The translations under genes and the position numbers were made by a program. The notes beneath the pieces are model-generated. The model was not told the origin of the DNA and did no database searches. It worked only from the letters and a program-made list of their open reading frames with translations. Shown here piece after piece: positions 25,907 through 48,115 of a stretch of 64,000 nucleotides of DNA (position 1 is its first letter; every line of letters starts with the position of its first letter). Source of the DNA: an uncultured Acidimicrobiia bacterium (GTDB lineage: Bacteria; Actinomycetota; Acidimicrobiia; Acidimicrobiales; SZUA-35); contig CBESNA010000001.1 in the NCBI GenBank assembly GCA_965530755.1, positions 4,739 to 68,738 on the forward strand. Reading direction: 5' to 3'.

Positions 25907-27589
25907 CTAGGGGCGGAGGAGGGCGAGGGTGGCGGCGGCGTCGGAAAGGAATCCGCCACCAACACTCGGCACCACGCCCCACAGCAGCGCCGCAGCGACC
26001 GACACCAACAACACCACCAGAACCTCCGGCGGGACGTCGAGCTGCTCGCGACCAGCGGTCGACGTACCACCATCGGCATCGTCGACAGCAGACGCAGCAG
26101 CGCCGAGTGACGACGCAGCCACGGCTGACCCGGCCGCCGCCCCGGTATCGGCTTCGTCAGCCTCGTCGGGGGCGTCGTCGTCGCTCATGAACATGGCCAC
26201 GACGAGTCTCAGGTACAAGTAGGCCGCCACCGCGGCAGCCAACATGGCCACCCCGGCCAACCAGTAACTCTCATCGCTCGCCGCAGCGGCGATCACCCGG
26301 AACTTGGCGAAGAAACCAGACGTGAAGGGAATGCCTGCTTGGGCGAACAGCAGCACCGCGAAGAGCGCCGCCAGAAGAGGCTCACGTGACGCCAGCCCGC
26401 GATAGTCGCTGATCTGGTGATTCCCGTCGCCCCGCCCGCCGACGACTGTGATCACGGCAAAGGACCCGATGACGGTGAGGGAGTAGGTGAACAGGTAGAA
26501 CAACGTGGCCGAACCGCCGAGCAGATCGACGCTGCCATCGGCCAGGACTCCGTCCTGAGCCGCACTGTGCAGACCCACCAGCATGAAGCCGGCGTGGGTG
26601 ATCGACGAGTACGCCATCATCCGCTTCACGTTGGTCTGCACCACGGCGAAGAACGCACCGATGACCAAGGTGAGCATCGCCATCGCCGCGACGATCGGCA
26701 GCCACTCGTCGCTGATAGCTGAGAATCCGTACAGGAAGACCCGCAGGAACCCGGCGAACGCCGCGACCTTCACCGCGGAGGCCATGAAGGCAACGATCGG
26801 CGTCGGAGCACCCTGGTAGACGTCAGGTGCCCAGACGTGGAACGGAGCAGCCGACACCTTGAAGCCGAAGCCGACCAGCATGAAGGCGATCCCGACGAGC
26901 AAGAGCGAGGCGTCCTCGATGGCGAGCAGCCCATTCGGAGCAGGGACGACCATGCCCCGGGCGATTCCGCCGAGGCGGGTCGAGCCGGTCGCCCCGTAGA
27001 CGAGCGCGATGCCGTAGAGGAACACCGCAGAGGACAACGCACCAAGGACGAAGTACTTGAACCCGGCCTCTTGGGACTCGGACCGTCGCAGATGCAGCGC
27101 CGCCAACACGTACACGGCGATGGAGAGGACTTCGAGGCCGACGAACGAGACGATGAGGTCTTCTGCCGACGCCAGCAAGACACCACCGGATGCGGACAGC
27201 AGGACGAGGGCGTACCACTCTGGCCCCTCGAGGCCCTCACGACGCGTGTAGTTGTCGAGCAGGAAAGCGACCAACACGACGGCGATACACAAGATCAATG
27301 TGATGAAGAGCGTGAAGTTGTCGACCACGATCGCGTCGGCCAGCACGTAGAACTCGCTCCGACCGGTGATTTCACCTTCGTCGTTGACTCGTTGCACGAT
27401 CGTCGGGATGAACGCCGCTGCGGTGATGGCAGACGCTGCGGTGAACGCCGCCGGGAAGCTTCCCTTGCGCGTGCTCGGTACCAGCGACGTGATCGTGATG
27501 AGGATGATGCTGGCCATCGAAAGGATGGTGAAGGGCCAGATCAGCGACCATTCGATGTCGGGGGTGACCACTTGGGCGAGCATGTTCAT
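25907..27589 (-). CDS. nuoN: NADH-quinone oxidoreductase subunit N (cluster 2), with an acidic low-complexity insertion
   Basis: FKVSAAPFHVWAPDVYQGAPTP motif. 560 aa. ATGA overlap with nuoM. Confidence 0.9.
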   Translation of the reverse strand: MNMLAQVVTPDIEWSLIWPFTILSMASIILITITSLVPSTRKGSFPAAFTAASAITAAAFIPTIVQRVNDEGEITGRSEFYVLADAIVVDNFTLFITLILCIAVVLVAFLLDNYTRREGLEGPEWYALVLLSASGGVLLASAEDLIVSFVGLEVLSIAVYVLAALHLRRSESQEAGFKYFVLGALSSAVFLYGIALVYGATGSTRLGGIARGMVVPAPNGLLAIEDASLLLVGIAFMLVGFGFKVSAAPFHVWAPDVYQGAPTPIVAFMASAVKVAAFAGFLRVFLYGFSAISDEWLPIVAAMAMLTLVIGAFFAVVQTNVKRMMAYSSITHAGFMLVGLHSAAQDGVLADGSVDLLGGSATLFYLFTYSLTVIGSFAVITVVGGRGDGNHQISDYRGLASREPLLAALFAVLLFAQAGIPFTSGFFAKFRVIAAAASDESYWLAGVAMLAAAVAAYLYLRLVVAMFMSDDDAPDEADEADTGAAAGSAVAASSLGAAASAVDDADGGTSTAGREQLDVPPEVLVVLLVSVAAALLWGVVPSVGGGFLSDAAATLALLRP

Positions 27590-29316
27590 TCCTCTGCCCC
27601 ATCGTCGGAGTGTTCGGCGTCGACCGAGCTGTCGGCGTCCTCGGAATGCCCGGCCTCGGCCTCTCGTTCTTCGAGGGCCTCGGTCAGCTCATGGCTTCCC
27701 GCAGGTTCGCTCGGCGCTTCGGGTTCGACCTCATCGAATTCCGGTGCATTGGCCTCGATGTGGGCGACCAGCCGATCGACGGCCGGCTCGATCCGTTCGA
27801 GCATCGGCTTGGGGTAGACGCCCAGGAAGACGATCAGCACCAACAGCGGTGCGATCGACAAGAACTCTGAGAGGCGGAGGTCACGCATCGTGGCGTTCTC
27901 TCCCTCGGCCGGCCCGTGGAAGACACGCTGGTAGGCCCAGAGGAGGTAGAGGGCGGCCAGGATCACACCGGTCACAGCGACGACGGTCCACCACCGTGCG
28001 CTCTGGAAGGCGCCGAGCAGGATCAAGAACTCACCGACGAAACCATTGAGACCCGGCAACCCGATGCTGGACAACATCACGAGGGTGAACACACCGGCCA
28101 TCATCGGCGCGGACTTCTGGAGCCCGCTCAACAAGGCGATCTCGCGAGTGTGGCGGCGCTCGTAGATCCAGCCGACGAGCATGAAGAGTGCACCGGTGGA
28201 GATGCCGTGATTCACCATCTGGATCACCGAGCCGCTGATGCTCTGCGTGTTCATGGCGAAGATGCCGATGACGATGAAGCCCATGTGGGCCACGGACGAA
28301 TACGCCACGAGTCGCTTGAGGTCCTTCTGCATCGTGGCCACGATCGCCCCGTAGACGATGCCGATCGTGCCGAGTGTGAGGAAGATCCATGCCAGATCGA
28401 CCGCGGCCTGCGGGAACAAGTAGAGGCCGAACCGGATGTAGCCGTACGTGCCCAGCTTGAGCATGACGCCAGCGAGGATGATCGATCCGGCGGTCGGGGC
28501 CTCGGTGTGGGCGTCTGGCAGCCATGTGTGCAGTGGGAACAGCGGCACCTTGACGGCGAAGCCGAGTGCAAACGCCAGGAAAATCAGCGTTTGCGCGGTG
28601 TCGCCGAGGGCTTGCGCCTCGGCCAGTTCGACGACGTCGAACGTCAGCGGGTTGCCGGTGTTCCGTGCTGTGAGGAAGGCGGTCGACACCAGACCGACCA
28701 GCATCAGCGCCGAGCCCGCCATCGTGTAGAGGAAGAACTTCAGCGAGGCGTAGATCCGGTTGCCGTGACCCCACCCGCCGATGAGGAAGTACATCGGGAC
28801 GAGCACGATCTCGAAGAAGAGGAAGAACAACAGCAAGTCGAGGGCGACGAACACACCCATCGACCCCGCCATCAAGACCATGATCCAGACGTAGTACTGC
28901 TTGGGATCGTGGTGGGGATCAGTGGCCAGGATGGCGATCGGGAAGAGCAGCCCGGCCAGCACGACGAGGAAGAGCGAGATGCCATCGACAGCCAGGAACC
29001 ACGAGAGGCCGAGGTCACTGAGCCAGACGTGACGACTCACGAACTGGAGACCGGCATCGCTCTTGTCGAAGTCGACGAGCACATACAGCGACAGCGCGCC
29101 GGTGAGCGACGAACCGGCGAGGGCCACGATCTTGGCGTAGTCGGGACGAGACGCCGGGAGGAGCAGCAGCACGAATGCGGTGATGAGCGGCACGATGATC
29201 AGCGATGGCAGGATCGGCCAGCTGACAGCTTCGCTCGCGGACTCGGACGCGAACCGCGCGAGTCCGTCATTCATCGCCGACGCCAGCGGAGCAACAGTCA
29301 ATGGAGCAACGGTCAT
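27586..29316 (-). CDS. nuoM: NADH-quinone oxidoreductase subunit M (cluster 2), with an acidic C-terminal tail
   Basis: FAVKVPLFPLHTWLPDAHTEAPT motif. ATG 29316 forms an ATGA overlap with the nuoL stop. The upstream 120 codons of ORF 27586..29676 were rejected. Confidence 0.9.
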   Translation of the reverse strand: MTVAPLTVAPLASAMNDGLARFASESASEAVSWPILPSLIIVPLITAFVLLLLPASRPDYAKIVALAGSSLTGALSLYVLVDFDKSDAGLQFVSRHVWLSDLGLSWFLAVDGISLFLVVLAGLLFPIAILATDPHHDPKQYYVWIMVLMAGSMGVFVALDLLLFFLFFEIVLVPMYFLIGGWGHGNRIYASLKFFLYTMAGSALMLVGLVSTAFLTARNTGNPLTFDVVELAEAQALGDTAQTLIFLAFALGFAVKVPLFPLHTWLPDAHTEAPTAGSIILAGVMLKLGTYGYIRFGLYLFPQAAVDLAWIFLTLGTIGIVYGAIVATMQKDLKRLVAYSSVAHMGFIVIGIFAMNTQSISGSVIQMVNHGISTGALFMLVGWIYERRHTREIALLSGLQKSAPMMAGVFTLVMLSSIGLPGLNGFVGEFLILLGAFQSARWWTVVAVTGVILAALYLLWAYQRVFHGPAEGENATMRDLRLSEFLSIAPLLVLIVFLGVYPKPMLERIEPAVDRLVAHIEANAPEFDEVEPEAPSEPAGSHELTEALEEREAEAGHSEDADSSVDAEHSDDGAEE

Positions 29317-31679
29317 AGCACCAGGCTCCTCAGCAGGGCAACGGCCAAGGCGCTGGTGCCGAGCACGAGGACCATTCCGTAAGAACGAACGAACCCGGTC
29401 TGGAGTCCTCTGGCACGATTGGCTGTGGCCGAGATCAGGGCCGGAACACCGTTCACGGCTCCGTCGATGAATGTCTTGTCGAACCAGGCGGCTCGATCGA
29501 AACCCTCGGTGCCGGGACCGCCGGCCACCGAGGCGATGGCCTTGTCGTAAGTGACGGCGAGCGCCAGTCCTGGCTTCTCGATCACCTCCGGTTTGACGCG
29601 ACCCTGCAGGTACACGGCGAAGGCCGCAGCGATGGCGACGAGTCCAACGGCGATGGCAACAGCAGCCAAGACCCACTTCAAGCCTGTGGCCACCGTCAAC
29701 TCGTGTTCATTGGCAAACAGCGACGGCTCGAGCCAGTGCTCGAGAAAATGCAGATCCTTGCTGAACGGCAAGTTGAGGCCACCGGCGACGATCGCCAGTC
29801 CAGCGAGGACGACCAGCGGAACCGTCATGGTCCATGGAGATTCGTGAGGGTGATACTCCTGCCGGGCTCGGTAGCTCTCTGGCAGGTCAGCCTCGAAATC
29901 GGAGACGTCGGGAGCAGGTGTGAAGGCGAAGACGTACTCTGGGACGGCCGGCGCGTTGCGTCTGGCGGTGTCGAACTCCTGGCGTCGCCCGGCCGCAACA
30001 ACCTGAGCGGCTTCGGCCGCGAGCAGAGCTTCCTCGGCCTCCACGACCTTGCCCTCGGCCTTCGCCAAGGCATCCTGCGATTTCGGCACGGCTTTGGTCG
30101 CTTTGTCGAACGCCTTGACCAACTTGTCGTGACCGTCCAAGTCCGGGGTCGACGCTTCGACGGCAACACCGGCCTCGACCAGGCCCGCCTCGGCCTTGGC
30201 GATCGCCTCGAGCCGCTTGGGAAGGTCGGCCTTGGCCTTGTCGAGGGCATCTTGGGCGCTCACGAGGCCCCCACGAGCGGCCTCGATCTCAGCCGTGGCA
30301 CCGTCGATTCGACCTTGGAACGCGGCGTCGATCTCGTCGGCGTGGGCATCGAAGAACCGGGTCCGTCCGAAGAAGGTGAGGATGACCTGGCGAGTCATGT
30401 AGAAGGCGGTGAGGAGGGCAGTGACGAGCCCGACGAACCACAGCAGCGGGTTGACGTCGAAGGCGTAGAGCAGGATTTCGTCCTTGCTCCAGAATCCGGC
30501 GAACGGCGGAACTCCTGCGATCGCGAGCCAGCCGATGATGAACGTGCCGGCAGTGATCGGCATGAGCTTGTAGAGCCCGCCCATCCGGCGCATGTCCTGC
30601 TCGTCGTGCATGCCGTGGATGACCGACCCGGACCCGAGGAACAGCAGCGCCTTGAAGAAGGCGTGGGTGATCATGTGGAAGATCGCCGGCACGTATGCAC
30701 CGACACCAATGGCCATGAACAGATAACCGAGCTGGCTGACCGTTGAGTAGGCCAGCACCTTCTTGATGTCGTTCTGCACCAGGGCGGCCAGGGCAGCGAC
30801 CAGTGCGGTGAGGGCGCCAACCCAGGCGATCAGGGAGAGCGACCATGGCTCAGCCGCAGCGAGTACGGGGTTGAGACGTGTGAGGAGATAGACCCCCGAG
30901 GTCACCATCGTGGCAGCGTGGATCAACGCCGAGACGGGGGTGGGGCCGGCCATGGCGTCTGGCAGCCAGACGAAGAGCGGGATCTGGGCGGACTTGCCAG
31001 TGGCGGCGAGCAGCATCAGAAGCGTGATTCCCGTTGCGGTACCGATGGCGAGAGCCGGGGCCTCGACGATGATGTCGGCGTAGTTGATCGACCCGATCGA
31101 CTTGAACACCAAGAACGTCGCGAGCATGAAACCGAAGTCACCAATGCGGTTGGTGACGAAGGCCTTCTTGCCCGCACTGGCGTTGGCTTCACTGGTGAAC
31201 CAGAACGAGATCAGCAGGTAGGAGCACGCACCGACGCCTTCCCAACCGAGGAAGGTCAGGAGCAGGTTGTCGCCGAGCACCAACACCAGCATCGAGGCGG
31301 CGAAGAGGTTGAGGTAGAGGAAGAACTTCGAGTAGTTCGGATCGCCATGCATGTACCCAACCGAATACAGGTGGATCATCGTGCCGACGCCGGTGATGAA
31401 CAGGCTCATCGCGATCGACAGGGGGTCGACCAGGAATCCGACGTCGACGCTGAACGATCCGGCTGGCACCCAGGTGAAGATCTTCTGGATGTAGAACCGC
31501 TCCGGTTCGTCCTCAGCCAGGAGACCGAAGAAGACCACGACGGTGGCAAGGAAACTTCCGCCCATGGCCCCAGTGGCAAGCCAACCGGCGGCCGGTTCGC
31601 CGAGACGGCGGCCGACCAACAGGATCAGCACGAAACCCAGGAGGGGCAGAGCAGGGATCAGCCAGGCGGCTTCGAGCAT
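29313..31679 (-). CDS. nuoL: NADH-quinone oxidoreductase subunit L (cluster 2), with a 165-aa Ala/Glu/Lys-rich insertion
   Basis: WLPDAMAGPTPVSALIHAATMV motif. 788 aa. Confidence 0.9.
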   Translation of the reverse strand: MLEAAWLIPALPLLGFVLILLVGRRLGEPAAGWLATGAMGGSFLATVVVFFGLLAEDEPERFYIQKIFTWVPAGSFSVDVGFLVDPLSIAMSLFITGVGTMIHLYSVGYMHGDPNYSKFFLYLNLFAASMLVLVLGDNLLLTFLGWEGVGACSYLLISFWFTSEANASAGKKAFVTNRIGDFGFMLATFLVFKSIGSINYADIIVEAPALAIGTATGITLLMLLAATGKSAQIPLFVWLPDAMAGPTPVSALIHAATMVTSGVYLLTRLNPVLAAAEPWSLSLIAWVGALTALVAALAALVQNDIKKVLAYSTVSQLGYLFMAIGVGAYVPAIFHMITHAFFKALLFLGSGSVIHGMHDEQDMRRMGGLYKLMPITAGTFIIGWLAIAGVPPFAGFWSKDEILLYAFDVNPLLWFVGLVTALLTAFYMTRQVILTFFGRTRFFDAHADEIDAAFQGRIDGATAEIEAARGGLVSAQDALDKAKADLPKRLEAIAKAEAGLVEAGVAVEASTPDLDGHDKLVKAFDKATKAVPKSQDALAKAEGKVVEAEEALLAAEAAQVVAAGRRQEFDTARRNAPAVPEYVFAFTPAPDVSDFEADLPESYRARQEYHPHESPWTMTVPLVVLAGLAIVAGGLNLPFSKDLHFLEHWLEPSLFANEHELTVATGLKWVLAAVAIAVGLVAIAAAFAVYLQGRVKPEVIEKPGLALAVTYDKAIASVAGGPGTEGFDRAAWFDKTFIDGAVNGVPALISATANRARGLQTGFVRSYGMVLVLGTSALAVALLRSLVL

Positions 31680-31680
31680 C

Positions 31681-31986
31681 TCAGCCCCTCATCTCGGCGA
31701 AATCATCGGCACTGGCATCCGGCTGACGGCGCATCAGCGCCACGACGATCGACAGCCCGACGACCACCTCGGCGGCAGCGACGACGAGCACGAAGAAGAC
31801 TGCGGTCTGGCCGGCGAGATCACCGAGCGCTCCGGAGAACGCGACGAAACTGATGTTGACGGCGTTGAGCATCAGCTCGACACACATGAACATGACGAGT
31901 GGATTGCGCCTGGTCATGAGGCCGAAGGCCCCGAGGGAGAACAGCACGGCGCTCAGCACCAGATACCACGTTGCGGTGACTTCCAC
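31681..31986 (-). CDS. nuoK: NADH-quinone oxidoreductase subunit K (cluster 2)
   Basis: 101-aa 3-TM protein ([28 protein letters not shown]). Confidence 0.9.
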
Positions 31987-31994: not shown

Positions 31995-32570
31995 CTACCG
32001 AACCGAGGTTCCGGGGTCATCGACCACCAGATCCTCGCCACCTTGATTACGGACCAACACGACAGAACCGACCGTGGCGATCGTCAGGAGGAGCGCCGTG
32101 GCTTCGAAGGCCAGGATGTTACGAGTGAAGAGGTCGCGCGCCAACTGGACGACGTCCTGACTGTCGTCGATCGGCGTGACCGCTCCCGGCTGGCCGGTGA
32201 GGGCAACGGCACCGTCGTCTGCATCGCCGGAGAGGAAGAGCCCACCCAGGGACAGTAGGAGGAGGAGGCCGGCACCCGCGGCGGCCAGTGCTCGTTGTCC
32301 GACGATGGGCTCGGTGCTGACATCTTCGGACTGGTCGACGCCGAGCAGCATGATCACGAAGAGGAACAGGACAACGACGGCACCGGCGTACACAACGACC
32401 TGGACCAGTGCCAGAAAGTGCGCTTCCTGCAGAATGAAGAGCAGGGCAACCCCGAAAAGGGTGGCTATCAGCGAAAGCGCGGCGTGGACCGGATTGCGGA
32501 AGCTGATCACACCGAGCCCGCCACCGAGGACGATGGCGGCGGCGATCACGAAGACGACGACATCAACCAT
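31995..32570 (-). CDS. nuoJ: NADH-quinone oxidoreductase subunit J (cluster 2)
   Basis: NuoJ-like TM pattern ([26 protein letters not shown]). Confidence 0.88.
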
Positions 32571-33265
32571 CAGTGATGACCCCCATGACCGTGTTCGTCG
32601 TCCGCATCGTCAGCAACGACCGCTGGTGCGTCCTCATCGGGATGGGCTTGGCCCTGTTCGGGGGGACGCACGCCGTAACCGAGCTCGCCGGACCACGCAA
32701 CGGTGTCTTCGAACGATGCCTTGCCAGACGATGACGTCGCCCGCATCCAACCGGAGGTGTTCTGGTCTTCTCCGGGCCGCCAGTCCTCCCAAGGCAGATG
32801 CTGAGGCATGCCGTCGTCACCCACGAGGAGTTCGTCCTTGGTGTAGATGGCGTCCTGGCGATTCGTGAACGAGAACTCGAACAGTTTCGATTCGGTGATG
32901 GCCTCGGTGGGGCAGGCCTCCACGCAGAGATCGCAGTGGATGCAGCGCAGGTAGTTGATCTCGTAGATGAAACCGAACCGCTCGCCGGGAGACTTCGGAT
33001 CGTCCGGCGGGTTGTCGGCGCCCCGGACATAGATGCACTTGGCAGGGCAGACGCCGGCACACAGCTCGCAGCCGATGCACTTCTCCATGCCGTCTTCGTA
33101 ACGGTTCAGGACGTGGCGACCGTGAGTCCGCTCGGGCTTCGGTGCTTTCTGGTCCTTCTCCGAGATCTCACCCTTGCGGTTCTTGGTTCCGCCTCGGTAC
33201 TCCCTGGTGGTGACGCCCTCGCCCCACTTCTTGAACGTGACGGCGAAGCCTTCGAGGTAGCCCAT
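32570..33265 (-). CDS. nuoI: NADH-quinone oxidoreductase subunit I (cluster 2), with an acidic/His-rich C-terminal extension
   Basis: CIGCELCAGVCP and CIHCDLCVEACP motifs. Confidence 0.92.
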   Translation of the reverse strand: MGYLEGFAVTFKKWGEGVTTREYRGGTKNRKGEISEKDQKAPKPERTHGRHVLNRYEDGMEKCIGCELCAGVCPAKCIYVRGADNPPDDPKSPGERFGFIYEINYLRCIHCDLCVEACPTEAITESKLFEFSFTNRQDAIYTKDELLVGDDGMPQHLPWEDWRPGEDQNTSGWMRATSSSGKASFEDTVAWSGELGYGVRPPEQGQAHPDEDAPAVVADDADDEHGHGGHH

Positions 33266-38383: not shown

Positions 38384-39003
38384 GAGACTTCCTCCGGGGC
38401 GGGTTGTCGGCTGGCGAACCAGGCCGGCGTGCCGGTGTCTTCAGGGGCGCCGATCCCGCCGAGACGGTCAGGGGTGATCGTCTGGCGAACCCGGGCAAGG
38501 GTGCCGTGTTCAGGGATGTCCGTACGCTTGCCGGCGCGAAGATCGTCGACGAGGACGTCGAAGTCGTTGTTACCGAGTCGGTACTCGTAGCGGTAGTTCA
38601 CCTGAAGGCAGGGCCCCTCGGTGCAGGCCGCTATGCACTCGACATCTTCGAGGGTGAACAAACCGTCTTCGGTGGTGCCGCCGGGGCGAACACCGAGCTT
38701 CTGCTCGGCGTGATGCAGCAGTTCCTCTGCGCCGACGAGCTGGCATGACAGGTTCGTGCAGATGTCGATCTTGTACGTTCCGACCGGGTGGGTGACGAAC
38801 ATCTCGTAGAAGCTGCAGGTTCCCATGACCTCGGCCGGCGTGACGCCGACCAAATCGGCCAGGTGCTCCATGGCGTCTGCCGCGACGTAGCCGTCCTGTT
38901 CCTGCGCCAGGTGGAGCAGCGGAATAAGTGCGGACTTCTTGCGCGGATATCGAGCGATGATGTCGTGCGCAATCGCTTCGTTCTCAGGGGACAGTCGACT
39001 CAC
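38380..39003 (-). CDS. nuoE: NADH-quinone oxidoreductase subunit E (cluster 2)
   Basis: Thioredoxin-like 2Fe-2S subunit (CTNLSCQL, ECIAACTEGPCLQVN). Confidence 0.9.
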   Translation of the reverse strand: MSRLSPENEAIAHDIIARYPRKKSALIPLLHLAQEQDGYVAADAMEHLADLVGVTPAEVMGTCSFYEMFVTHPVGTYKIDICTNLSCQLVGAEELLHHAEQKLGVRPGGTTEDGLFTLEDVECIAACTEGPCLQVNYRYEYRLGNNDFDVLVDDLRAGKRTDIPEHGTLARVRQTITPDRLGGIGAPEDTGTPAWFASRQPAPEEVS

Positions 39004-40372: not shown

Positions 40373-40900
40373 TCAGCGTGAAGCCGGTGCGCCCTTGAAC
40401 TGCACGGGGATGGCGCCGGTGGCGTAGTCCTTGCGGAGGGGATGACCCTCCCAGTGCTCCGGCATCATGATGCGCGACAGGTCAGGATGACCCTCGAACA
40501 CGATGCCCATGAGGTCGTACACCTCACGTTCGAGCGCATCGGACCCCGGATAGATCGAGTAGAGCGAGCCGATGATGGGATCCGATGCGGGCACCTGGAT
40601 TCGCGCCCGGATCCGTTCGCGGCGCTCGTGAGAGATGAAACCGGCGACGACCTCGAAACGCTCTGCCTGGACGCCGACCGGCACGCGTCGGTGGCCTCCG
40701 AAGCTGAGGAAATCAACGGCGGTGACGTCGACACACATGTTGAATCCGTCCGCCAGCAGCGACGAAGCAACCTCGAGCCACTGTTCGCGAGCAGGATGGA
40801 TCACTCGTTGCGCTCTCGACCAGCTGACCGGACACCCGTAGGCGGATTCAGGTTCGATGGCGACTGGTGGTTCCACCGATTCGTCTGGGGCGTCGCTCAT
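40373..40900 (-). CDS. nuoC: NADH-quinone oxidoreductase subunit C (cluster 2)
   Basis: [29 protein letters not shown], the NuoC core. Confidence 0.9.
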
Positions 40901-41487
40901 GCCGATCGACCGACAGTGAGCAAGGTGGTTTCGCCCTGGCCGTCACGCTGCTCGATGATGATCCCGGCTCCGCTGCCGGACACACCGCGTCTGCGCATGA
41001 TCTCGCCGGTCTCGATCTGGTGGTGGAGGGTCTCGATGGCGTGGAGAAGGGTCTCCGGGCCGGGCGGGCAGCCAGGTGCGTACACGTCGACGGGCACGAC
41101 CTGATCGACACCCTGGACGATCGCGTAATTGTTGAACATGCCGCCGCTCGACGCGCAGACACCCATGGATATGACCCACTTGGGCTCCATCATCTGGTCG
41201 TAGATCTGGCGGAGGACCGGTGCCATCTTCTGGCTGACCCGACCAGCGACGATCATGATGTCCGCCTGGCGCGGCGATGCCCGGAAGACTTCCATGCCGA
41301 GCCGAGCCATGTCGTAGTGAGATCCACCAGTGGCCATCATCTCGATGGCGCAACACGCCAAACCGAAAGTGGCGGGCCACGACGAACGCGAGCGGGACCA
41401 TCGAACCAGATTTTCGAGTTGACCCGTGACGATGTTGTGGTCGAGCCCACCCAGGCCGTCGTCCTGGATGTCGGTGATCAGACCCAT
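40897..41487 (-). CDS. nuoB: NADH-quinone oxidoreductase subunit B (cluster 2)
   Basis: [19 protein letters not shown] and APGCPP motifs. ATG 41487 overlaps the nuoA stop (TGATG). The upstream part of ORF 40897..41892 was rejected. Confidence 0.92.
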
Positions 41488-42017
41488 CAGGAACCTCCGC
41501 TGGGTTCGAGCGTGCGAATCGGGTCGGGATGACCGGCAGACTCGCGTCCGGGTCCGGCAGTGAACGTCTGGTCGAAGCGACCGTCGAGACCGACACGGCG
41601 GATGGTCGACGATGAGGTGCGGTGCGCACCCACCGCTTCCGGCTGGCGACGATTGACCTGGAGCGAGCCCCAGTCGAGGGCTCCCTTGGAGATCAGGTAG
41701 AGGAACGACTCGAACACCAGCGCCGAGAACAAGAGGATGGCGACGAGCCCGAAGAGACCGAGTTCGCGGTGCGCCATGGCGTACGGGTAGAGGAAGATGA
41801 TCTCGATGTCGAACACGATGAAGAGCATCGCGACGAGGTAGAAGCGCACCGGGAACCGCTGCGGAGGTTCGCGGCCGGGGATGATGCCGCACTCGTACGG
41901 CGCGTACTTGGCCTCGGTTGCTCGGTTCGGAGCCAACAGCTTCGACGCGACGAGGCTGACGGCCGCGAAGAGGGCGGCGAGGACCAGTAGCGCCGCAATC
42001 GGTAGGTACTGGGCCAT
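41487..42017 (-). CDS. nuoA: NADH-quinone oxidoreductase subunit A (cluster 2), with a ~55-aa C-terminal extension
   Basis: KYAPYECGI and [11 protein letters not shown] motifs. Confidence 0.9.
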
Positions 42018-42062
42018 GAGAGTTCCTTCCGAGCGGTCAGGCGACCGCGGCCAGCTGGGCGA

Positions 42063-43043
42063 TCATGCGACCGCAGCGCGAATGTTCTGTTCTCGACGGT
42101 CCCGGATGTGCATCATCCATGAGACCACGGCGAACAGAATGCCATTGAAGATGGCAAAGAGTGCGGGAACGACGCGTTGTCCTCCGACGAGCGCAGGGAT
42201 CGGCCCCCCGCGGTCACGCTCGAGCACCACGCTGATTGTGCTCTTGGTTGGATCGGCGGTGGCGACGGGGGGCGGTTCGCCTGGCAACGTCGGCTCGTCG
42301 ACCACACCCTGGAACTGGACGACCACGAGCTCCTGGGGATGCCAGAAGTGGATGAACGTGGTGTCGAACTTGTGCAGCAGACGGGCCGGGAGGTCGGTGA
42401 ACGACTCCACCCAGGCCGACTTTCCGGGATCGTCGGCGACGATGTCCGGATCGAGGCGCGGTTTACCGCCGATGTTGTAGGCGTCGAAGGTGAGGGGCAC
42501 GAACTCGGCCGTACTGGCGAAGACGCCCTCCTCGATCAAGAACTCCTCCGCCGTTGCCGTGGCCTCGCCGCGTTGCGGGTCGGAGGTGGCGAGGTAACGC
42601 CAATCGGCGAGCAGCTGCGGGTTGGCCCGAGAGATCTCGACGGCGTCAGCCTGACGAAGGTCGGGGTCATCGGACGAGACTGCTTCACCAAGATCGAAAG
42701 CCTCGATGGCCAGTCCGAGCTCTTGAACGCGCTCGTCCTCGGCGAACACGAGTCCATCGGCATCGCGAGCGGGATTGTCACCGTTGATCTCGACCAGCGC
42801 CCACGATTCACCTTCGCCCCGCCAACCAATGGCATAGATAGTCCAGACGACACCCATCAGGAACAGCCAGCCGAACAACTGACCGGCCGTGATGAGGGCA
42901 CCGAGGCGAGAGCCGCTGTTGCTGGCGACCAGGAGATACGAGCCCCCGATGAGGACCACCACGCCGACCAACACACTGAGCAGACCACGGAAGAACGGAT
43001 CGAATCCGACGCCGCCGATGAATCCAAGAGAAACTGCAAGCAT
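42063..43043 (-). CDS. Orphan membrane protein (3 N-terminal TM, ~200-aa acidic extracytoplasmic-looking domain, C-terminal TM), last gene of the Rieske/cyt b module
   Basis: ATG 43043 overlaps the cytochrome c stop (TGATG). I recognise no family. Hydrophobic segments include LLSVLVGVVVLIGGSYLLV, LFGWLFLMGVVWTIYAIGW and VVPALFAIFNGILFAVVSWMM. Confidence 0.6.
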   Translation of the reverse strand: MLAVSLGFIGGVGFDPFFRGLLSVLVGVVVLIGGSYLLVASNSGSRLGALITAGQLFGWLFLMGVVWTIYAIGWRGEGESWALVEINGDNPARDADGLVFAEDERVQELGLAIEAFDLGEAVSSDDPDLRQADAVEISRANPQLLADWRYLATSDPQRGEATATAEEFLIEEGVFASTAEFVPLTFDAYNIGGKPRLDPDIVADDPGKSAWVESFTDLPARLLHKFDTTFIHFWHPQELVVVQFQGVVDEPTLPGEPPPVATADPTKSTISVVLERDRGGPIPALVGGQRVVPALFAIFNGILFAVVSWMMHIRDRREQNIRAAVA

Positions 43044-44578
43044 CAGAGACCTCGCTCGTAGTCGACGACTGCCTGGATGTATTCCGGAGGCAGCAAGGCA
43101 CCAAAGCCCGGCATCATGCCGGCTGAACTCTGACCGCCTCGGCCGAAGCCGCGGCCGGCCTCGGCGCCGCTGTAGATGAAGTTGTACTGGGCGTAGCTGG
43201 TGCGCTCGGGCATGTCGACCACCGTGCAATCGTCACCGAGACGGCCGTCGCTCAAAGCGATCACCGTGCCGGTCAGGTCGGACTCGGTGAGTTCGACCGG
43301 TGCGATGAACTCGCCGTTGTCGTCGAGCTCGAACACGTGGTCGAAGGCGAACGGATACGACTCGCCGCCGTCGGGCTCCCACAGATTCGAGACCGTGGCG
43401 CAGTCGGCGAGGTCGCCGTTGTCGAGGATTCGGTAGAACTCGTCGGTGCCATCTGGATTCTGCTGACCGGTGATGGGGCTACCGCGATCGTCGAGACGAA
43501 TCTCGGTGCCGTCCATGGCGAGGTAGTAGAAACCGTCGTCGTCGGCCAGTCCACCCTCCGGAGCCCAGGTGCCATCCGGCAGCTTCCAGGCGTCATCGGG
43601 GAAGTGCTGGTCGACGCCACCACACAGGTTCCAGCCGATGCCGGAGGGGTTGCCACCACCGCAGGCAGCAACGCCGTCGGAGAGCGGGTCGCCTCCGGGG
43701 TGCGGCACGTTCGGTCCGAGGGACCAACCAGCGGTGTGACAGCGTGCGCAGCTCAGCGAGCCGGCCTGGAAACTCGAGTAGTAACCGAGGTTGAACACGG
43801 CTTCACCGACGGAGTCGAATTCGCCGTCTGCCATGGACCGCTCGACCTCTTTGACGATCGCGGCCGCCTGCTTGTCGGCGGCTTCCTGCGCGGCTTCGGG
43901 ATCAGCAGACTCGTTGATGGTGATCGGATCGAGCGACTGGACCTGGAACAGATCGATGTATTCCTGGACGTTCTGGACCTGCTGAGTGGTGAGCGGACCA
44001 CCGCCAGGGGTGCCCCATGCTGCCATCGGCGAACCGGGGCGGCCGTAGTTCAGGATGTAGGTGACCTCTTCCTCGGAGTAGCGGAGGAAGACGTTGTTGA
44101 GCGCCGGCGCGGTCCACGCCGCATTGGCGAGGAACTGGCCGTCTTGATCCTGCAGCACGTAGGCGGCGACGCCGCCGACGCCGCCGGCGGCGTGGCAGTT
44201 CACGCACTGCGCGGTTTCGATGTAGACACCCTCGCCGCGTGATTCGAAGTTGAGCTGATACGCGTCGACCGCGCCGTCTTGTCGACCTGGCTCAGCGAGC
44301 CAGTAGAACGGCAGGGCGAGGGCCAGCAGACCGAGCGTGACCAATGCGAAACCGAGAGACCAATCGAGCTTCTTGCCCTCGAGTTCTTCATCGTCGAGGT
44401 AGGGCTTCTTGTTCGCCGCCAACTCGATCTCCGAACCGAGCTCGGGGCGAGCCTGGAACGAGTTTCGAATGAACAGGAGAACGAAGCCGGCCAGAACGAC
44501 CACAGCGACGGTCAAACCGATGGCGCGGAAATCTGCGGCGAAAACCGCAGTTGTAGCAAACACAGGGGCAGAACTCAT
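43043..44578 (-). CDS. Membrane-anchored di-haem c-type cytochrome (QcrC-like), with a large insertion in the second haem domain
   Basis: Two CxxCH motifs (CVNCH, CARCH). Candidate Met ligands are GSPMAAWG and AGMMPGFG. Two N-terminal TM segments. One-nt overlap with the Rieske stop. Confidence 0.85.
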   Translation of the reverse strand: MSSAPVFATTAVFAADFRAIGLTVAVVVLAGFVLLFIRNSFQARPELGSEIELAANKKPYLDDEELEGKKLDWSLGFALVTLGLLALALPFYWLAEPGRQDGAVDAYQLNFESRGEGVYIETAQCVNCHAAGGVGGVAAYVLQDQDGQFLANAAWTAPALNNVFLRYSEEEVTYILNYGRPGSPMAAWGTPGGGPLTTQQVQNVQEYIDLFQVQSLDPITINESADPEAAQEAADKQAAAIVKEVERSMADGEFDSVGEAVFNLGYYSSFQAGSLSCARCHTAGWSLGPNVPHPGGDPLSDGVAACGGGNPSGIGWNLCGGVDQHFPDDAWKLPDGTWAPEGGLADDDGFYYLAMDGTEIRLDDRGSPITGQQNPDGTDEFYRILDNGDLADCATVSNLWEPDGGESYPFAFDHVFELDDNGEFIAPVELTESDLTGTVIALSDGRLGDDCTVVDMPERTSYAQYNFIYSGAEAGRGFGRGGQSSAGMMPGFGALLPPEYIQAVVDYERGL

Positions 44579-45447
44579 CAGTGACTCGCTGCTCCGATGC
44601 AGTTGGGACCCTCGGCCTCTTGGCCGGTGGTGTTGGTGCCGATCGCCGGACCCTGAATCACGGTGCCGGTGTCGACCTCGAGCTCATTGGCCGCATTGAC
44701 TACCATCGGGAAGCGGTCCATGCCGCGTGGGGCGGGGCCGCCCTTCTTCTCGCCGACCCGGTTGTACTGGGAGCCGTGGCAGGGACATTCGAACCACTGA
44801 GAAGTCTGACAGTCGGGCACACGGCAACCGAGGTGCGGGCAGGTCTGGTAGAGGGCCACGACCCCGGCGCGAAGACCAGCCTCGACCTGGGGGAAGAAGC
44901 CGTAGCCAGTGACCGCCTTCTCGATCGCATCGTGGGGGTACTCGGTCACCCACATACGACCCTCGGGGACGTAGAGGAAGCCACCGCCGGCCTTGATGGA
45001 GGCCTGGATGTCGCTGATGCGTCCGACGTTGATGATCGAACCGAATCCGCTCGAGCCCTGCGGCCACAAAAAGGCAATACACGCTGCGCCGAAGCTGGTG
45101 AGTCCGAGACCGAACGTGGCGACGATGCCCCGGTTCAAGAACTGGCGACGGGCGACACCGATGGTCTCAGGGTCCGGGGGAACGTAGGCGACGGGGGCGA
45201 CGCTGCCGGCCGCGACGAGCGCTCCGGAACGTTCGACACGGGCCGCGGCTTCGACTGCCTTGCCGCTGACGACCAGCTCGGGCTCCTCGGCGCCGACAGG
45301 AGAGATCGTTGCCGCGCGGTCGCGCTTGACGGTCTCTCCCGACAACTGCCCAATGGCAGACGCCGAATCACGATTTCGGAACGTTGCTGCGATCGCGAAC
45401 AGAGCGATGGCGGCCAGTACAGCGACAGCGATGATCAAACCAGTCAT
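44578..45447 (-). CDS. qcrA: Rieske [2Fe-2S] subunit of a menaquinol:cytochrome c reductase
   Basis: CPHLGC and CPCHGS boxes. An internal twin-arginine segment (ARRQFLNRG) precedes a TM helix. Confidence 0.9.
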   Translation of the reverse strand: MTGLIIAVAVLAAIALFAIAATFRNRDSASAIGQLSGETVKRDRAATISPVGAEEPELVVSGKAVEAAARVERSGALVAAGSVAPVAYVPPDPETIGVARRQFLNRGIVATFGLGLTSFGAACIAFLWPQGSSGFGSIINVGRISDIQASIKAGGGFLYVPEGRMWVTEYPHDAIEKAVTGYGFFPQVEAGLRAGVVALYQTCPHLGCRVPDCQTSQWFECPCHGSQYNRVGEKKGGPAPRGMDRFPMVVNAANELEVDTGTVIQGPAIGTNTTGQEAEGPNCIGAASH

Positions 45448-45460: not shown

Positions 45461-46234
45461 CTAGAGCTCGAAGAACAGGCCGTCGGCCCATGGGAAGACG
45501 AAGTTGAAGCCAGGGCCTCGGAAGAACGAGCCGATCATGGTGAGCACGGCCCAGAACATCAAGAACATGGTGAACAAGCTGACCGCAAACTTGCGATCCT
45601 CGGGTTTGTTCGATGGATTGCGGTCGATGTATGGCGCCATCGTCAAGATGATGAGGCCGATGCCGGGAATCGTCACGCCGGCGACCATCGGGTGGAACAT
45701 GGTGAGCAGTTCCTGGAGGCCGAGGAAATACCACGGCGCCTTCGAGGGATTCGGGGTGGCGTTCACGTTCGCCAATTCGAGCAGCGGAGCGTTCACGAAG
45801 ATCGAGAAGAACGTGAGGAAGACGGTGACGGCGAGGGCGGCACCGAACTCGACCACGATCAGGTGCGGCCAAGTGTGAACCTTGTCGAGCGGCTTGGACT
45901 TGATGTCCTGGATCGACCCGGACTTGACCACCGTGAGCAGGCGCTGGGTGTGTCCGGCGGGTCCGGTCATGGCTGGAACATCGGCGACCGCAGTTGCCGC
46001 CGCGACAGCGGTCCCGACGCCACCACCGGCGGGAGCGACTGCTGCCTCGGAGCCCTTCTGCTTGGCCGACTTCGAGCGCTGCAGGAGGTGGGCGGGGATC
46101 TTGCTGGCCGCCGGGTCGGTCGAGGCCGACTCGGCTGCCTCCGAGGCAGCCGGAGCAGCAGCTTCCGCCGCGCCTTCGGCCTTCTTGCGAGCCTCCTCGG
46201 CCCGCTTGCGGAGATGTTCGGGGATTTCGGTCAT
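45461..46234 (-). CDS. Cytochrome b C-terminal-domain protein (b6f subunit IV-like), with a ~115-aa Ala/Lys-rich N-terminal extension
   Basis: PEWY-type Qo motif region (APWYFLGLQELL) and 3 TM segments. The extension carries two IPxHLxxR motifs. Confidence 0.85.
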   Translation of the reverse strand: MTEIPEHLRKRAEEARKKAEGAAEAAAPAASEAAESASTDPAASKIPAHLLQRSKSAKQKGSEAAVAPAGGGVGTAVAAATAVADVPAMTGPAGHTQRLLTVVKSGSIQDIKSKPLDKVHTWPHLIVVEFGAALAVTVFLTFFSIFVNAPLLELANVNATPNPSKAPWYFLGLQELLTMFHPMVAGVTIPGIGLIILTMAPYIDRNPSNKPEDRKFAVSLFTMFLMFWAVLTMIGSFFRGPGFNFVFPWADGLFFEL

Positions 46235-46315: not shown

Positions 46316-47107
46316 CTAGAGCGGCCCGGAGATGCCGCCGTCTTTCCTGACCCTCCAGAAGTGGATGGCCATGAAGATGACGGTGACGAAGGGTAGGAGC
46401 AGTACGTGCAGCACGTACCAACGCAACAACGTGTCGGTGCCGATGACCTTGCCACCCAGCAGCACGAACCGGACCTGGTCACCGAACACAGGGGTGTACC
46501 CCATCATGTTGGTACCGACGGTGACCGCCCACAAGGCGAGCTGATCCCACGGAAGCAGATAGCCGGTGAAGGACAGCAGCAGCGTCATCTGGAGGAGGAT
46601 CGTGCCGATGACCCAGTTGAACTCACGCGGCGCCTTGTAAGCCCCGTGGTAGAACACGCGGGCCATGTGAAGGAACACCGAGAGCACCATCAGATGGGCG
46701 CCCCATCGGTGCATGTTCCGAACGAGTAGACCGAAGGTGACCGAGGTCTGCAGCGTGTAGATGTCCTGCCACGCTGCGGCTGCGGTCGGCCGGTAGAAGA
46801 ACATCAAGAAGATGCCGGTGACGGTGAGGATGATGAAGAGGAAGAAGCTGAGCCCGCCGAGACACAGGGTGTAGCTCACCTTGACCGCGTGGCGCTTCAC
46901 CTTCACAGGGTGCAGGTGGTACAGCACCGAGTTCATGATCACGTATGACCGGTTCCTAGGGCTGTCGGTGTAGCCCTTGCGGAAGACCGAGCCGGGCCGG
47001 AAGATCGAGTTCCAGACCTGTGAGCTCTGGACCGAGTCGCTGGCGGTCGCCGCCGATGCCGCGGCACGCTCGGCGAGCGTGGGCTTGTCCTGAATCGACT
47101 TTGCCAT
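46316..47107 (-). CDS. qcrB: Cytochrome b6-type (N-terminal domain only) cytochrome b
   Basis: Paired haem-ligand histidines (RNMHRWGAHLM, WYVLHVLLLPFVTVIFMAIHFW). Ends in GGISGPL like Bacillus QcrB / cytochrome b6. Confidence 0.9.
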   Translation of the reverse strand: MAKSIQDKPTLAERAAASAATASDSVQSSQVWNSIFRPGSVFRKGYTDSPRNRSYVIMNSVLYHLHPVKVKRHAVKVSYTLCLGGLSFFLFIILTVTGIFLMFFYRPTAAAAWQDIYTLQTSVTFGLLVRNMHRWGAHLMVLSVFLHMARVFYHGAYKAPREFNWVIGTILLQMTLLLSFTGYLLPWDQLALWAVTVGTNMMGYTPVFGDQVRFVLLGGKVIGTDTLLRWYVLHVLLLPFVTVIFMAIHFWRVRKDGGISGPL

Positions 47108-47169
47108 GAGTTGAGAGTTCCTCGAGTTGCGGGGGTCGAGATCGACCGGAAATCGGTGTGACGGGGAGC

Positions 47170-47589
47170 CTAGGCGAGGCGCATGCCGTAGCCGTAGCCG
47201 TGGGAATCGGTTCGCTGGTGATGATCACCGGTTGGGTTGGCGGTGTCGGCCACCTTGCCCAGGATGATCACGCCAGTGGGACAGCGGTCGACGCAGAGTG
47301 CACAGCGAGTACACACGTCGTCGTCGATGGTGAAAATGAATGCATCGGAGGGATCGTCGCCCGGTTTGGCGATACCGAAACTCTCAGAGATGGCGTCTGT
47401 CGGCTGCATGTGGATGCACTTCCACGGGCAGATGTCGACGCAGCCTTCACAGGCAATACATTCGGCCTGATCGATGTGGATGAACTGCTTCGGCTTGACC
47501 GCCTTGGAGAGGTAGTCCGCGTCGACCTCGACCAGGATGTAGTCGTCGCGGAACTCTGGAAGGGGTGGATTGGCGTCGGTGGTGACCAT
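47170..47589 (-). CDS. 2x[4Fe-4S] dicluster ferredoxin-domain protein
   Basis: CIACEGCVDICP and CTRCALCVDRCP motifs. 139 aa. 62 bp upstream of cytochrome b6. Confidence 0.85.
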   Translation of the reverse strand: MVTTDANPPLPEFRDDYILVEVDADYLSKAVKPKQFIHIDQAECIACEGCVDICPWKCIHMQPTDAISESFGIAKPGDDPSDAFIFTIDDDVCTRCALCVDRCPTGVIILGKVADTANPTGDHHQRTDSHGYGYGMRLA

Positions 47590-47599
47590 CTGTCGTCGA

Positions 47600-48037
47600 T
47601 CAGCCCCTCTTGATCAGGGGGCGGCCGTACGTGGATGTCGGCAGCTCGGCCGCCTTGGTCTTGCCTCGTTCCTGCCACTGCAACCACATCACGATCATTC
47701 CGGTGAGGAACGCGATGTAGATCAGTGCAGCGATCGAGTCGGACAGCACTCGATAGGTGATCTCGAAGGGGAACCAGCCGCCCTGGCTCTTGGCGGTGAT
47801 CAGGCCCCAGGCATCCCAGATGCGATCGGCTCGGAAGCTCCACTCGTTCTCGGCGAGGGTCAACCACTGGTGGGGCACGATGCCGAAGACGAGGAAGAAG
47901 ACGAAAAAGACGTACACCGACATCATGCTCGCCTCGCCCCAGCTCATGTGGTTCTCGGGGTCTCGCCGAGACGACCACAACGCAAAGGCGCCGACCAGGA
48001 GGAAGGAGATGGCGGTTGAAACAATGAGAGCGGTCAC
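47600..48037 (-). CDS. Orphan small membrane protein, first gene of the Rieske/cyt b module
   Basis: GTG 48037 is preceded by GAGG at 6 nt. 145 aa with about 4 hydrophobic segments. The ORF-track start at 48136 would place the Rex operator inside the coding sequence and was rejected. Confidence 0.6.
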   Translation of the reverse strand: MTALIVSTAISFLLVGAFALWSSRRDPENHMSWGEASMMSVYVFFVFFLVFGIVPHQWLTLAENEWSFRADRIWDAWGLITAKSQGGWFPFEITYRVLSDSIAALIYIAFLTGMIVMWLQWQERGKTKAAELPTSTYGRPLIKRG

Positions 48038-48068
48038 GCAGAACCTCGACAGTGGCGAGCAAACGAGC

Positions 48069-48086
48069 TTGTGAACAGTTGCACAA
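48069..48086. promoter_or_regulatory. Rex operator (ROP)-like palindrome
   Basis: TTGTGAACAGTTGCACAA matches the ROP consensus TTGTGAA-N4-TTCACAA at 13 of 14 specified positions. It lies 32 bp upstream of GTG 48037 in the divergent intergenic region. Confidence 0.7.
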
Positions 48087-48115
48087 TCTAATCGAACGAT
48101 CCTGCCTCTGTGCAA
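48085..48115 (-). promoter_or_regulatory. Candidate sigma-70-type promoter of the Rieske/cyt b-nuo gene array
   Basis: On the minus strand: TTGCAC (48115-48110), a 19-nt spacer, then TAGATT (48090-48085). The -10 abuts and overlaps the Rex operator. Confidence 0.4.

Follow-up and report, generated by a model that had tools for sequence, protein, structure and literature searches.

A block of 21 consecutive genes, in which a Rieske/cytochrome b (bc) module lies directly upstream of a complete set of complex I genes (nuoA to nuoN), was found in a stretch of 64,000 nucleotides from an uncultured Acidimicrobiia bacterium (assembly GCA_965530755.1, contig CBESNA010000001.1; the whole stretch is here referred to as the window). 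The block extends on the minus strand from a GTG start codon at position 48037 to the stop codon of nuoN at 25907 (~22 kb). Based on the structural and comparative analysis it probably represents a lineage-specific respiratory super-operon, in which a single transcript reaching from the region 48038–48385 to nuoN would provide for the coordinated synthesis of two enzymes working in the direction of forward electron flow. Co-transcription of the bc module and nuo is well supported by the comparative evidence, as judged from gene order and spacing; that the two complexes are also linked physically or electronically is speculative. To our knowledge, the genes of complex I and complex III are normally unlinked in bacteria, and in full-text literature searches limited to open-access papers nothing was found on a bc-nuo operon of Acidimicrobiia. 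The kinds of components, the split cytochrome b of Ilumatobacter and the tandem nuo14 and nuo11 clusters of Actinomarinales were known already. New are the fusion throughout an order, a truncated Fe-S subunit, the proteins specific to this lineage and an N-terminal motif shared by two of the proteins.

The genes upstream of nuoA encode, in this order, a small membrane protein (here named TM1), a ferredoxin-like protein (Fdx), a cytochrome b6-type subunit (b6), the C-terminal cytochrome b subunit (SuIV), a Rieske protein, a membrane-anchored cytochrome c (CytC) and a membrane protein which joins both modules (here named the orphan). They are followed by nuoA to nuoN. Spacers across the block range from 4-nt ATGA overlaps up to 81 nt. 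Within the bc module they measured 10 nt (TM1/Fdx), 62 nt (Fdx/b6), 81 nt (b6/SuIV) and 13 nt (SuIV/Rieske), with overlaps of 1 nt between Rieske and CytC and between CytC and the orphan. The orphan and nuoA are separated by 45 nt (42018–42062). Among the nuo genes, overlaps of 1 nt (nuoA/B, H/I and I/J) and of 4 nt (B/C, E/F, F/G, G/H, L/M and M/N) alternate with spacers of 10 nt (C/D), 3 nt (D/E), 8 nt (J/K) and 1 nt (K/L). At its 3' border the block meets a convergent MerR gene, which follows nuoN. At the other end, a divergent intergenic region of 348 bp (48038–48385) separates TM1 from a cytochrome c gene of opposite orientation (here named divC). Judged from its position only, this region is the presumed promoter for both the block and divC.

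The gene coordinates and the Pfam and NCBIfam identities agree with a preliminary description of this DNA, which had reported 21 minus-strand genes between these two positions. Its range of spacers, from 4-nt overlaps to 81 bp, and its start/stop overlaps at the Rieske/CytC and CytC/orphan borders are likewise borne out by the coordinates of the open reading frames (ORFs). The orphan-nuoA spacer had been described as 45 bp long, with no hairpin seen in it. The length is correct; the spacer does carry, together with a ribosome-binding site (GGAAGGA), a 6-bp GC stem (GCGGUC-GCCU-GACCGC) without a U-tract. The fold was not better than that of shuffled sequences (z = -0.12). Since no TA dinucleotide is present in this spacer, a -10 box of the type TANNNT is absent as well. 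A strong terminator or an independent promoter at this place had been named in the same description as evidence against the co-transcription that it inferred; no strong terminator and no recognisable promoter was seen in 42018–42062, an outcome in favour of that inference.

Consensus scans detected zero terminator-like or sigma-70-like sites in any spacer of the block, with totals not above the shuffled expectation, and the sigma-70 consensus scan gave no match in the 348-bp divergent region either. These scans and the spacer folding are weak tools for high-GC Actinobacteria, whose promoters are poorly captured by the sigma-70 consensus, so that the empty scans count as mild evidence only. In summary of the layout, the genes share one strand and short spacers, and no intrinsic terminator was found between them, as in a single operon.

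The conservation of the junction was surveyed in one genome per species of the GTDB by an alignment scan with the window cytochrome b. The best 80 of at least 593 matches, ranked by similarity, were kept, and the gene content of the loci (numbered with the prefix L) was determined by tblastn with the window proteins. Two long-read chromosomes of metagenome-assembled genomes (MAGs) were added separately. The sample includes the families Microthrixaceae, Ilumatobacteraceae, Iamiaceae and Aldehydirespiratoraceae and the isolates Salinilacustrithrix flava and Aquihabitans sp. G128 (L062, where the block is intact). The order TM1-Fdx-b6-SuIV-Rieske-CytC-orphan-nuoA-B-C-D was present in each of the informative species-representative genomes (66/66), with orphan identities down to 27%. 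The two MAG chromosomes (5.4 and 6.3 Mb) carried the same 21-gene order together with the divergent cytochrome c, and their orphans were ~50% identical to that of the window. The adjacency of the two modules, for which a gene-neighbourhood survey had been proposed at the outset, is thus kept throughout the 66 genomes and both chromosomes, and it goes beyond a chance arrangement. The 80 loci bear names of the Acidimicrobiales type, with the exception of two short contigs with the module (L038 and L063), which were labelled as Verrucomicrobiota and Bifidobacterium breve MAGs, most likely due to binning contamination.

In five species (L008, L026, L046, L061 and L044, the last being Salinilacustrithrix flava) no nuoE-G-like sequence was found after nuoD. 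In L044, the sole broken locus that was read, a gene for an ABC-transporter ATPase/permease (17618–19465) follows nuoD. The bc genes and nuoABCD stay joined even where nuo breaks after nuoD, so that the stability of the bc-nuoA junction equals or exceeds that of a junction inside nuo.

In 69 loci the orphan-nuoA spacer had a median length of 4 nt. It measured 2–6 nt in 39 loci, where a GGAGG-like ribosome-binding site is located inside the 3' end of the orphan gene. A spacer of this length leaves no room inside it for a terminator or a promoter. Junctions of this type, with the ribosome-binding site in the upstream gene, have the arrangement predicted for translational coupling.

Several points weigh against a single super-operon. 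The survey covers the 80 best-scoring matches, within the Acidimicrobiales, and the spacer lengths across the loci depend on a heuristic choice of start codons. The subclade of the window has longer orphan-nuoA spacers (18–125 nt), some of them with hairpins. In L005 the spacer contains a terminator-like element consisting of a 7-bp GC stem (GGCGCGT-TTCT-ACGCGCC) followed by TTTT. Such hairpins make a partial termination, or a differential expression of the two halves, plausible in this subclade, which suggests a lineage-specific attenuation between the halves of the block in the hairpin-bearing relatives. Promoters may also be located within genes, such as near the 3' end of the orphan. Conserved synteny on its own can also reflect descent and not selection. 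A GC-rich hairpin was seen in the orphan-nuoA spacers of L018–L020 as well.

In a rival reading there are two neighbouring operons which are transcribed independently from each other; nuo would be driven by its own promoter, situated at the orphan-nuoA junction or shortly ahead of it, and the adjacency would be inherited synteny of no functional meaning. Internal promoters are common in long operons, the sigma-70 scan is ill-suited to high-GC Actinobacteria, and within the window's subclade spacers of 39–125 nt with hairpins occur; a TAGATT hexamer is common to the long spacers of L041 and L032. We nevertheless consider two separate operons rather unlikely. The spacer measures 2–6 nt in 39 species, the orphan-nuoA junction outlives the nuoD-nuoE junction, and it was kept in all 66 species over a deep divergence. 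In the window itself the spacer lacks the TA dinucleotide and its stem-loop does not exceed the shuffles.

The upstream module is a split b6-type Rieske/cytochrome b complex and not an actinobacterial qcrCAB. The b6-type subunit (46316–47107, minus strand; 263 aa, PF00033) has four transmembrane (TM) helices; three segments passed the threshold of the hydrophobicity window, and the fourth helix is deduced from the PF00033 match and the b6 alignment. Among the NCBIfam models, the window protein passed ExtP (303.5 bits, cut-off 290) and stayed below the cut-offs of b6 (NF002990, 215 vs 325 bits) and QcrB (NF050120, 120.8 vs 500 bits). In a sequence search of the PDB the closest solved structures were cyanobacterial and chloroplast cytochrome b6 (E = 4e-47), and mycobacterial and corynebacterial QcrB reached just ~87 bits. 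The histidine pairs of haems bL and bH (H133/H147 and H234/H249) are spaced by 14 and 15 residues and are invariant in the alignment. A cysteine of the CxGG type, for which attachment of haem ci is predicted, was present as LCLGG in 82 and as LCFGG in one of the 83 loci (Cys82 in the window). Relative to solved b6 proteins the subunit carries an N-terminal extension of ~47 residues with an invariant YHLHPVKVKRH motif. Nowhere is the protein more conserved than in the His-rich n-side stretch NRSYV(I/V)MN...YHLHPVKVKRH.

SuIV (45461–46234, minus strand; 257 aa, PF00032) has three TM helices and carries the Qo motif APWY in 75/75 loci. The Rieske [2Fe-2S] protein (44578–45447, minus strand; 289 aa, PF00355) has two TM segments and a twin-arginine motif (RRQFL). 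Its cluster-binding boxes in the window are CPHLGC and CPCHGSQY; across the loci, box I read CPHLGC or CVHLGC (74/74) and box II CxCHG(S/T)x(Y/F) (74/74). In nearly all loci box II has the form CxCHGSxY, here named the 'SY' signature. A Ser/Tyr pair correlates with Rieske potentials of +300 to +350 mV (Baymann et al., PMC3509893). CytC (43043–44578, minus strand; 511 aa, Pfam Cytochrome_CBB3 and Cytochrom_C) is a membrane-anchored dihaem cytochrome c with the haem motifs CVNCH and CARCH in the window and with two CxxCH motifs in 72 of 73 loci. Its AlphaFold2 (AF2) model, with a mean predicted local distance difference test (pLDDT) score of 72.7, contains a large, beta-rich and confident insert. 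The PDB sequence search gave no usable match to CytC, and Foldseek against the PDB gave none at E <= 0.001; its hits to dihaem peroxidases and QcrC were non-significant.

An uncharacterised 'APWY clade' of cytochrome b proteins with a CxGG motif was defined by Kao & Hunte (PMC4122944). These authors described a split cytochrome b of this clade in Ilumatobacter (Acidimicrobiia), which evolved independently of the long actinobacterial QcrB, and they proposed that enzymes of the APWY type may run in reverse (PMC4122944). The window proteins show APWY on the C-terminal part of cytochrome b, a split b and the CxGG motif, and they are assigned to the clade by these motifs in comparison with the published definition. 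The module would therefore belong to the APWY branch, which is shared with the NAD(P)-linked Rieske/cytochrome b complexes of anammox bacteria.

The preliminary description had compared the module with the actinobacterial qcrCAB genes, a comparison that does not hold with respect to the cytochrome b, which fails QcrB, passes ExtP and is closest to cytochrome b6. The QcrCAB complexes of Mycobacterium and Corynebacterium, which form an obligate bcc-aa3 supercomplex, share with the window module the presumed function as a quinol:cytochrome c reductase, a c-type subunit with two haems, a Tat-type Rieske protein with several TM segments (Tat, twin-arginine translocation) and an actinobacterial host. 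An assignment to qcrCAB was rejected on the NCBIfam scores, as the cytochrome b stayed far below the QcrB cut-off and the Rieske protein reached only 22 of 275 bits against QcrA (NF050121). Cytochrome b is split, unlike the long QcrB, and the gene order differs as well, being Fdx-b6-SuIV-Rieske-c in the window and C-A-B in QcrCAB. Scans of genes along the 64-kb window showed no cta or cytochrome oxidase families, in contrast to the association of QcrCAB with cta.

Cytochrome b6f of cyanobacteria and chloroplasts and the b6c complexes of Bacilli and Heliobacteria resemble the window module in the four-helix b6, the histidine spacing of 14/15, the CxGG motif and the three-helix subunit IV. Unlike b6f, the window module lacks cytochrome f, its c-type subunit matching nothing but class I cytochrome c families. 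It also lacks the small Pet subunits, and its b6 remains below the NF002990 cut-off given above. It further differs from b6f and b6c in that no cytochrome c is fused to subunit IV, in the motif APWY instead of PEWY or PDWY, in the ~47-residue extension of b6 and in the extra Fe-S subunit.

The match to ExtP might point to the Ext cluster of Geobacter, which is connected with selenite/tellurite reduction and includes ExtP and ExtQ as a pair of b-type cytochromes. This assignment was rejected: only ExtP passed, SuIV reached 54.1 bits against a cut-off of 150 for ExtQ, and no further Ext match was found among the scanned proteins. Close relatives of the cytochrome b6 (P0123, P0172 and P0541) are automatically named 'selenite/tellurite reduction operon b-type cytochrome ExtP' in NCBI. 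Because SuIV fails ExtQ, other Ext matches are absent and the context is respiratory, the name ExtP is probably an over-annotation.

Fdx (47170–47589, minus strand; 139 aa, Fer4 families of Pfam) is a cytoplasmic, ferredoxin-like protein without a TM helix, predicted to bind two [4Fe-4S] clusters. Two CxxCxxCxxxCP motifs were present in 81 of 83 loci. With identities of 71–97% across the loci, Fdx ranks second in conservation among the proteins of the module.

For an outgroup, 50%-identity representatives were searched with cytochrome b. The nearest distinct cluster had identities of 62–68%, and metagenome contigs were then scanned with it. This resulted in 80 loci (L083–L162) with a GC content of ~70–73%. 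One member of the cluster is named Chloroflexi/Chloroflexota bacterium, and the outgroup lineage probably belongs to the Chloroflexota. Its loci repeat the gene order of the window, with b6 (FCLGG), subunit IV (APWY) and the Rieske protein followed by a fusion of cytochrome c with cupredoxin. None of the 23 outgroup loci that extend 6 kb or more downstream contained nuo, the orphan, TM1 or divC. Since the bc-nuo junction is conserved in the order Acidimicrobiales and absent from the nearest outgroup, the fusion is best regarded as a derived, conserved trait.

Overlapping the b6 start, the outgroup has a gene whose product (~650–790 aa) combines Fer4_20 and Pyr_redox_2 domains (a GltD-like NAD(P)/FAD oxidoreductase) with a 2x[4Fe-4S] domain at the C-terminus. 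This flavoprotein is located directly upstream of b6 in 41 of the 45 outgroup loci with enough upstream sequence (e.g. L100, 8034–10004). The window Fdx is homologous to its C-terminal domain (32% identity over 85 residues, E = 4e-11), and the N-terminal FAD/NAD(P) part gave 0 tblastn matches in 82 Acidimicrobiales loci. An architecture of flavoprotein and Rieske/cytochrome b6 like that of anammox bacteria is thereby seen to be present in soil and sediment metagenomes.

Two Rieske/cytochrome b complexes of the anammox bacterium Kuenenia are b6f-like and possess a cytoplasmic NAD(P) oxidoreductase; they were proposed to produce NAD(P)H by quinol bifurcation (PMC12954380). Rieske potentials above +300 mV were measured for these NAD(P)-linked complexes, and the models include an Fe-S path with an extra haem ligated by an N-terminal histidine of cytochrome b (PMC12954380). 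The complexes of Kuenenia stuttgartiensis (Kustd1480-1485 and Kuste4569-4574) and those of the outgroup share with the window module a split b6 and subunit IV, the haem-ci cysteine, a gene for an n-side Fe-S subunit next to cytochrome b and a Rieske protein of the high-potential type. Outgroup and window both have APWY at Qo. In contrast to the anammox type, the window module has no FAD/NAD(P) subunit: it lacks the Pyr_redox_2 and Fer4_20 parts and possesses the 2x[4Fe-4S] domain alone. The c-type subunit is a dihaem class I cytochrome in the window as compared to hexa-/octahaem cytochromes or the cytochrome c-cupredoxin fusion in the anammox type and the outgroup, and subunit IV has three TM helices as compared to five in this group. 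In addition, a linkage with the complete nuo operon, TM1, the orphan and divC is confined to the Acidimicrobiales in this comparison.

These similarities raise the question of a functional or physical coupling of the two complexes, which is not exclusive of a single super-operon. In a coupled arrangement Fdx, as the remnant of an NAD(P) oxidoreductase subunit, would wire haem bH/ci to complex I in trans. That Fdx plays this part is doubtful in our opinion. The further step, in which the orphan or TM1 would act as a tether of a complex I-bc supercomplex with direct channelling or with anammox-type, quinol-driven bifurcation to NAD+, is equally tentative. In favour of coupling, the counterpart of Fdx in the outgroup is the C-terminus of a Fer4_20/Pyr_redox_2/2x4Fe4S protein encoded directly upstream of b6, and Acidimicrobiales lack the flavoprotein part and yet gained nuo, the orphan, TM1 and divC. 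The high conservation of Fdx fits with coupling, as does the fact that the His-rich n-side extension is the most conserved part of b6, the extra haem on the Fe-S path in the Kuenenia models being ligated by an N-terminal histidine of cytochrome b. The 'SY' signature of the Rieske protein belongs to the type above +300 mV, the same high potential as measured in the NAD(P)-linked complexes of Kuenenia. On the other hand only two clades were contrasted, so that the co-occurrence of these traits amounts to a single evolutionary event. Fdx could also be a vestigial structural subunit, and the hosts, which we take to be mostly aerobic heterotrophs, have no obvious need for a quinol-driven reduction of NAD+.

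Coupling would explain why the loss of the flavoprotein coincides with the acquisition of nuo, TM1, the orphan and the N-terminal motif shared by two proteins. One may imagine, although we find it improbable as a whole, that the module descends from NAD(P)-linked and possibly bifurcating complexes of the anammox type, lost its own flavoprotein and now binds to complex I, or passes electrons to or from it, via Fdx, with the orphan, TM1 and the MTEIPEHLxKR peptides described below as tethers. If this were true, it would be a genetically hard-wired bacterial supercomplex of complexes I and III, in which electrons could take a route around the quinone pool or in addition to it.

An apparently clean in-frame fusion of Fdx with cytochrome b6 was observed in one protein (P0148, 377 aa, JGI). 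It agrees with a coupling role of Fdx, being weak evidence of a partnership of the two proteins. Three further fusions of Fdx and cytochrome b (P0128, P0134 and P0185) were rejected as Rosetta-stone evidence; with their Arg/Pro-rich linkers they look like frameshift artefacts.

Of the lineage-specific proteins, TM1 is encoded by the first gene of the block (47600–48037, minus strand). It is 145 aa in size, with three hydrophobic segments taken as TM helices, and was found in 80 loci with identities of 31–75%. No significant match to TM1 was obtained in Pfam, NCBIfam or the PDB. The orphan (42063–43043, minus strand; 326 aa) has two N-terminal and one C-terminal TM helices, which in the AF2 model (pLDDT 80.7) flank a confident, well-folded alpha/beta domain. 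It matched no Pfam, NCBIfam or PDB sequence entry, and Foldseek against the PDB gave none at E <= 0.001. For the orphan 234 homologues were detectable, and all taxon names attached to them are Acidimicrobiales or Acidimicrobiia.

divC (48386–49276, plus strand) encodes a membrane-anchored mono-haem cytochrome c of 296 aa with the haem motif CSGCH, for which Pfam and NCBIfam gave no match. It adjoins the block in nearly all loci. SuIV and divC share an N-terminal decapeptide, (M/V/L)TE(I/V)PEHL(R/L)KR(A/S), in essentially every genome (L001–L082). In the window SuIV starts with MTEIPEHLRKR (46205–46234, minus strand) and carries a second, degenerate copy at residues 44–58 (SKIPAHLLQRSKSAK; 46055–46100, minus strand). 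divC begins with the motif VTEIPEHLLKRS (48386–48420, plus strand). The decapeptide was absent from subunit IV of the Chloroflexota-like outgroup. As the N-termini of SuIV and divC are located in front of a linker and a TM helix, they should be cytoplasmic, and the shared decapeptide is probably a cytoplasmic docking peptide.

Complex I is represented in the block by all 14 families NuoA to NuoN in canonical order on one strand. The genes, all on the minus strand, are nuoA (41487–42017; 176 aa, PF00507, NF005922), nuoB (40897–41487; 196 aa, PF01058), nuoC (40373–40900; PF00329), nuoD (39007–40362; PF00346), nuoE (38380–39003; PF01257), nuoF (36941–38383; PF01512, PF10589), nuoG (34554–36944; PF13510, PF10588, PF22117, PF00384), nuoH (33265–34557; PF00146), nuoI (32570–33265; Fer4 families), nuoJ (31995–32570; PF00499), nuoK (31681–31986; PF00420), nuoL (29313–31679; PF00361, PF00662, PF01010), nuoM (27586–29316; PF00361), whose ATG start codon overlaps the nuoL stop codon as ATGA, and nuoN (25907–27589; PF00361) as the last gene. 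The NADH-oxidising N-module is complete, with NuoE, NuoF carrying FMN and 4Fe-4S domains, and NuoG. The number of 14 subunits and their order correspond to the canonical operons of E. coli, Thermus (nqo) and Mycobacterium. The window differs from these in the seven extra genes upstream of nuoA and in a C-terminal extension of ~55 residues in NuoA (41487–41654, minus strand), which is missing in canonical NuoA. The median NuoA size across the loci was 160 aa.

According to the super-operon that we favour, transcription would start in the 348-bp divergent region and run through nuoN. The first enzyme encoded would be a b6-type menaquinol:cytochrome c oxidoreductase composed of the split b6 and SuIV with haems bL, bH and ci and an APWY-type Qo site. 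The Tat-type Rieske protein and the membrane-anchored dihaem CytC would form the electron exit, with Fdx on the n-side and TM1 and the orphan added to the complex; we infer that the latter three are members of it. The quinone is presumably menaquinone, in view of the chemotaxonomy of Acidimicrobiia. The second enzyme would be a 14-subunit NADH:quinone oxidoreductase. NuoEFG would oxidise NADH, complex I would reduce the quinone, and the quinol would be re-oxidised at the Qo site, with electrons leaving via Rieske and CytC if the flow is in the assumed direction. From there they may go on through divC to a terminal oxidase encoded elsewhere. One transcription unit, often translationally coupled at its junction, would give coordinated synthesis of both enzymes.

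The opposite direction was considered as well. An 'uphill' unit, in which a reverse APWY-type bc complex and a reverse complex I would reduce NAD+ at the expense of a high-potential electron donor, as in Acidithiobacillus ferrooxidans, could build on the suggestion of Kao & Hunte for APWY-type complexes (PMC4122944) and on the high-potential-type Rieske signature. We judge it highly improbable, since the block is universal in the sampled Acidimicrobiales, including heterotrophic isolates and Microthrix. Moreover, zero genes for lithotrophic donors were among the window genes scanned, and if the module is the only Rieske/cytochrome b complex of the host, forward respiration must rely on it.

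An order-wide and often translationally coupled fusion of this kind can be regarded as a natural experiment in the coordinated assembly of complexes I and III. The coupled expression, and possibly the physical coupling, of both complexes becomes testable, and cultured carriers such as Aquihabitans and Ilumatobacter are a place to look directly for an association of complexes I and III in bacteria. A large and environmentally abundant group of Actinobacteria is hereby tied to the uncharacterised APWY branch of Rieske/cytochrome b complexes. Since the anammox NAD(P)-linked complexes belong to the same branch, the Acidimicrobiales, as aerobic heterotrophs, could be more tractable for work on the n-side Fe-S subunit and on haem ci. 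The results also correct the annotation: relatives of the cytochrome b are automatically named 'ExtP', and pathway tools can report complex III as missing in Acidimicrobiia. For Ca. Actinomarinales, paired nuo14 and nuo11 clusters were described, complex III was reported missing and a link to bc genes was not mentioned (PMC7771536).

A second, complex-I-like cluster was found in the window 6 kb downstream of nuoN (9032–20049, minus strand). It comprises 11 genes (nuoA, B, C, D, H, I, J, K, L, M and N) and is devoid of nuoE, F and G. Genes for a glycogen-branching-type enzyme, an SDR, Dus and MerR are located between the two clusters, and the pairing is as in Ca. Actinomarinales (PMC7771536).

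On the other side of the block, 2.5 kb upstream of the bc module, lies a haem-biosynthesis cluster (51753–57069, minus strand) consisting of a hemA-type GluTR gene, hemC, hemD, hemB and a class-III aminotransferase gene (hemL-like). An ALAD gene in L001 and an aminotransferase gene in L002 were present at the matching upstream edge, which suggests that the haem cluster is syntenic. Between divC and this cluster an 803-aa protein of the secreted type with fn3 and three DUF4214 repeats is encoded (49323–51734, plus strand), which is syntenic in L001 and L002.

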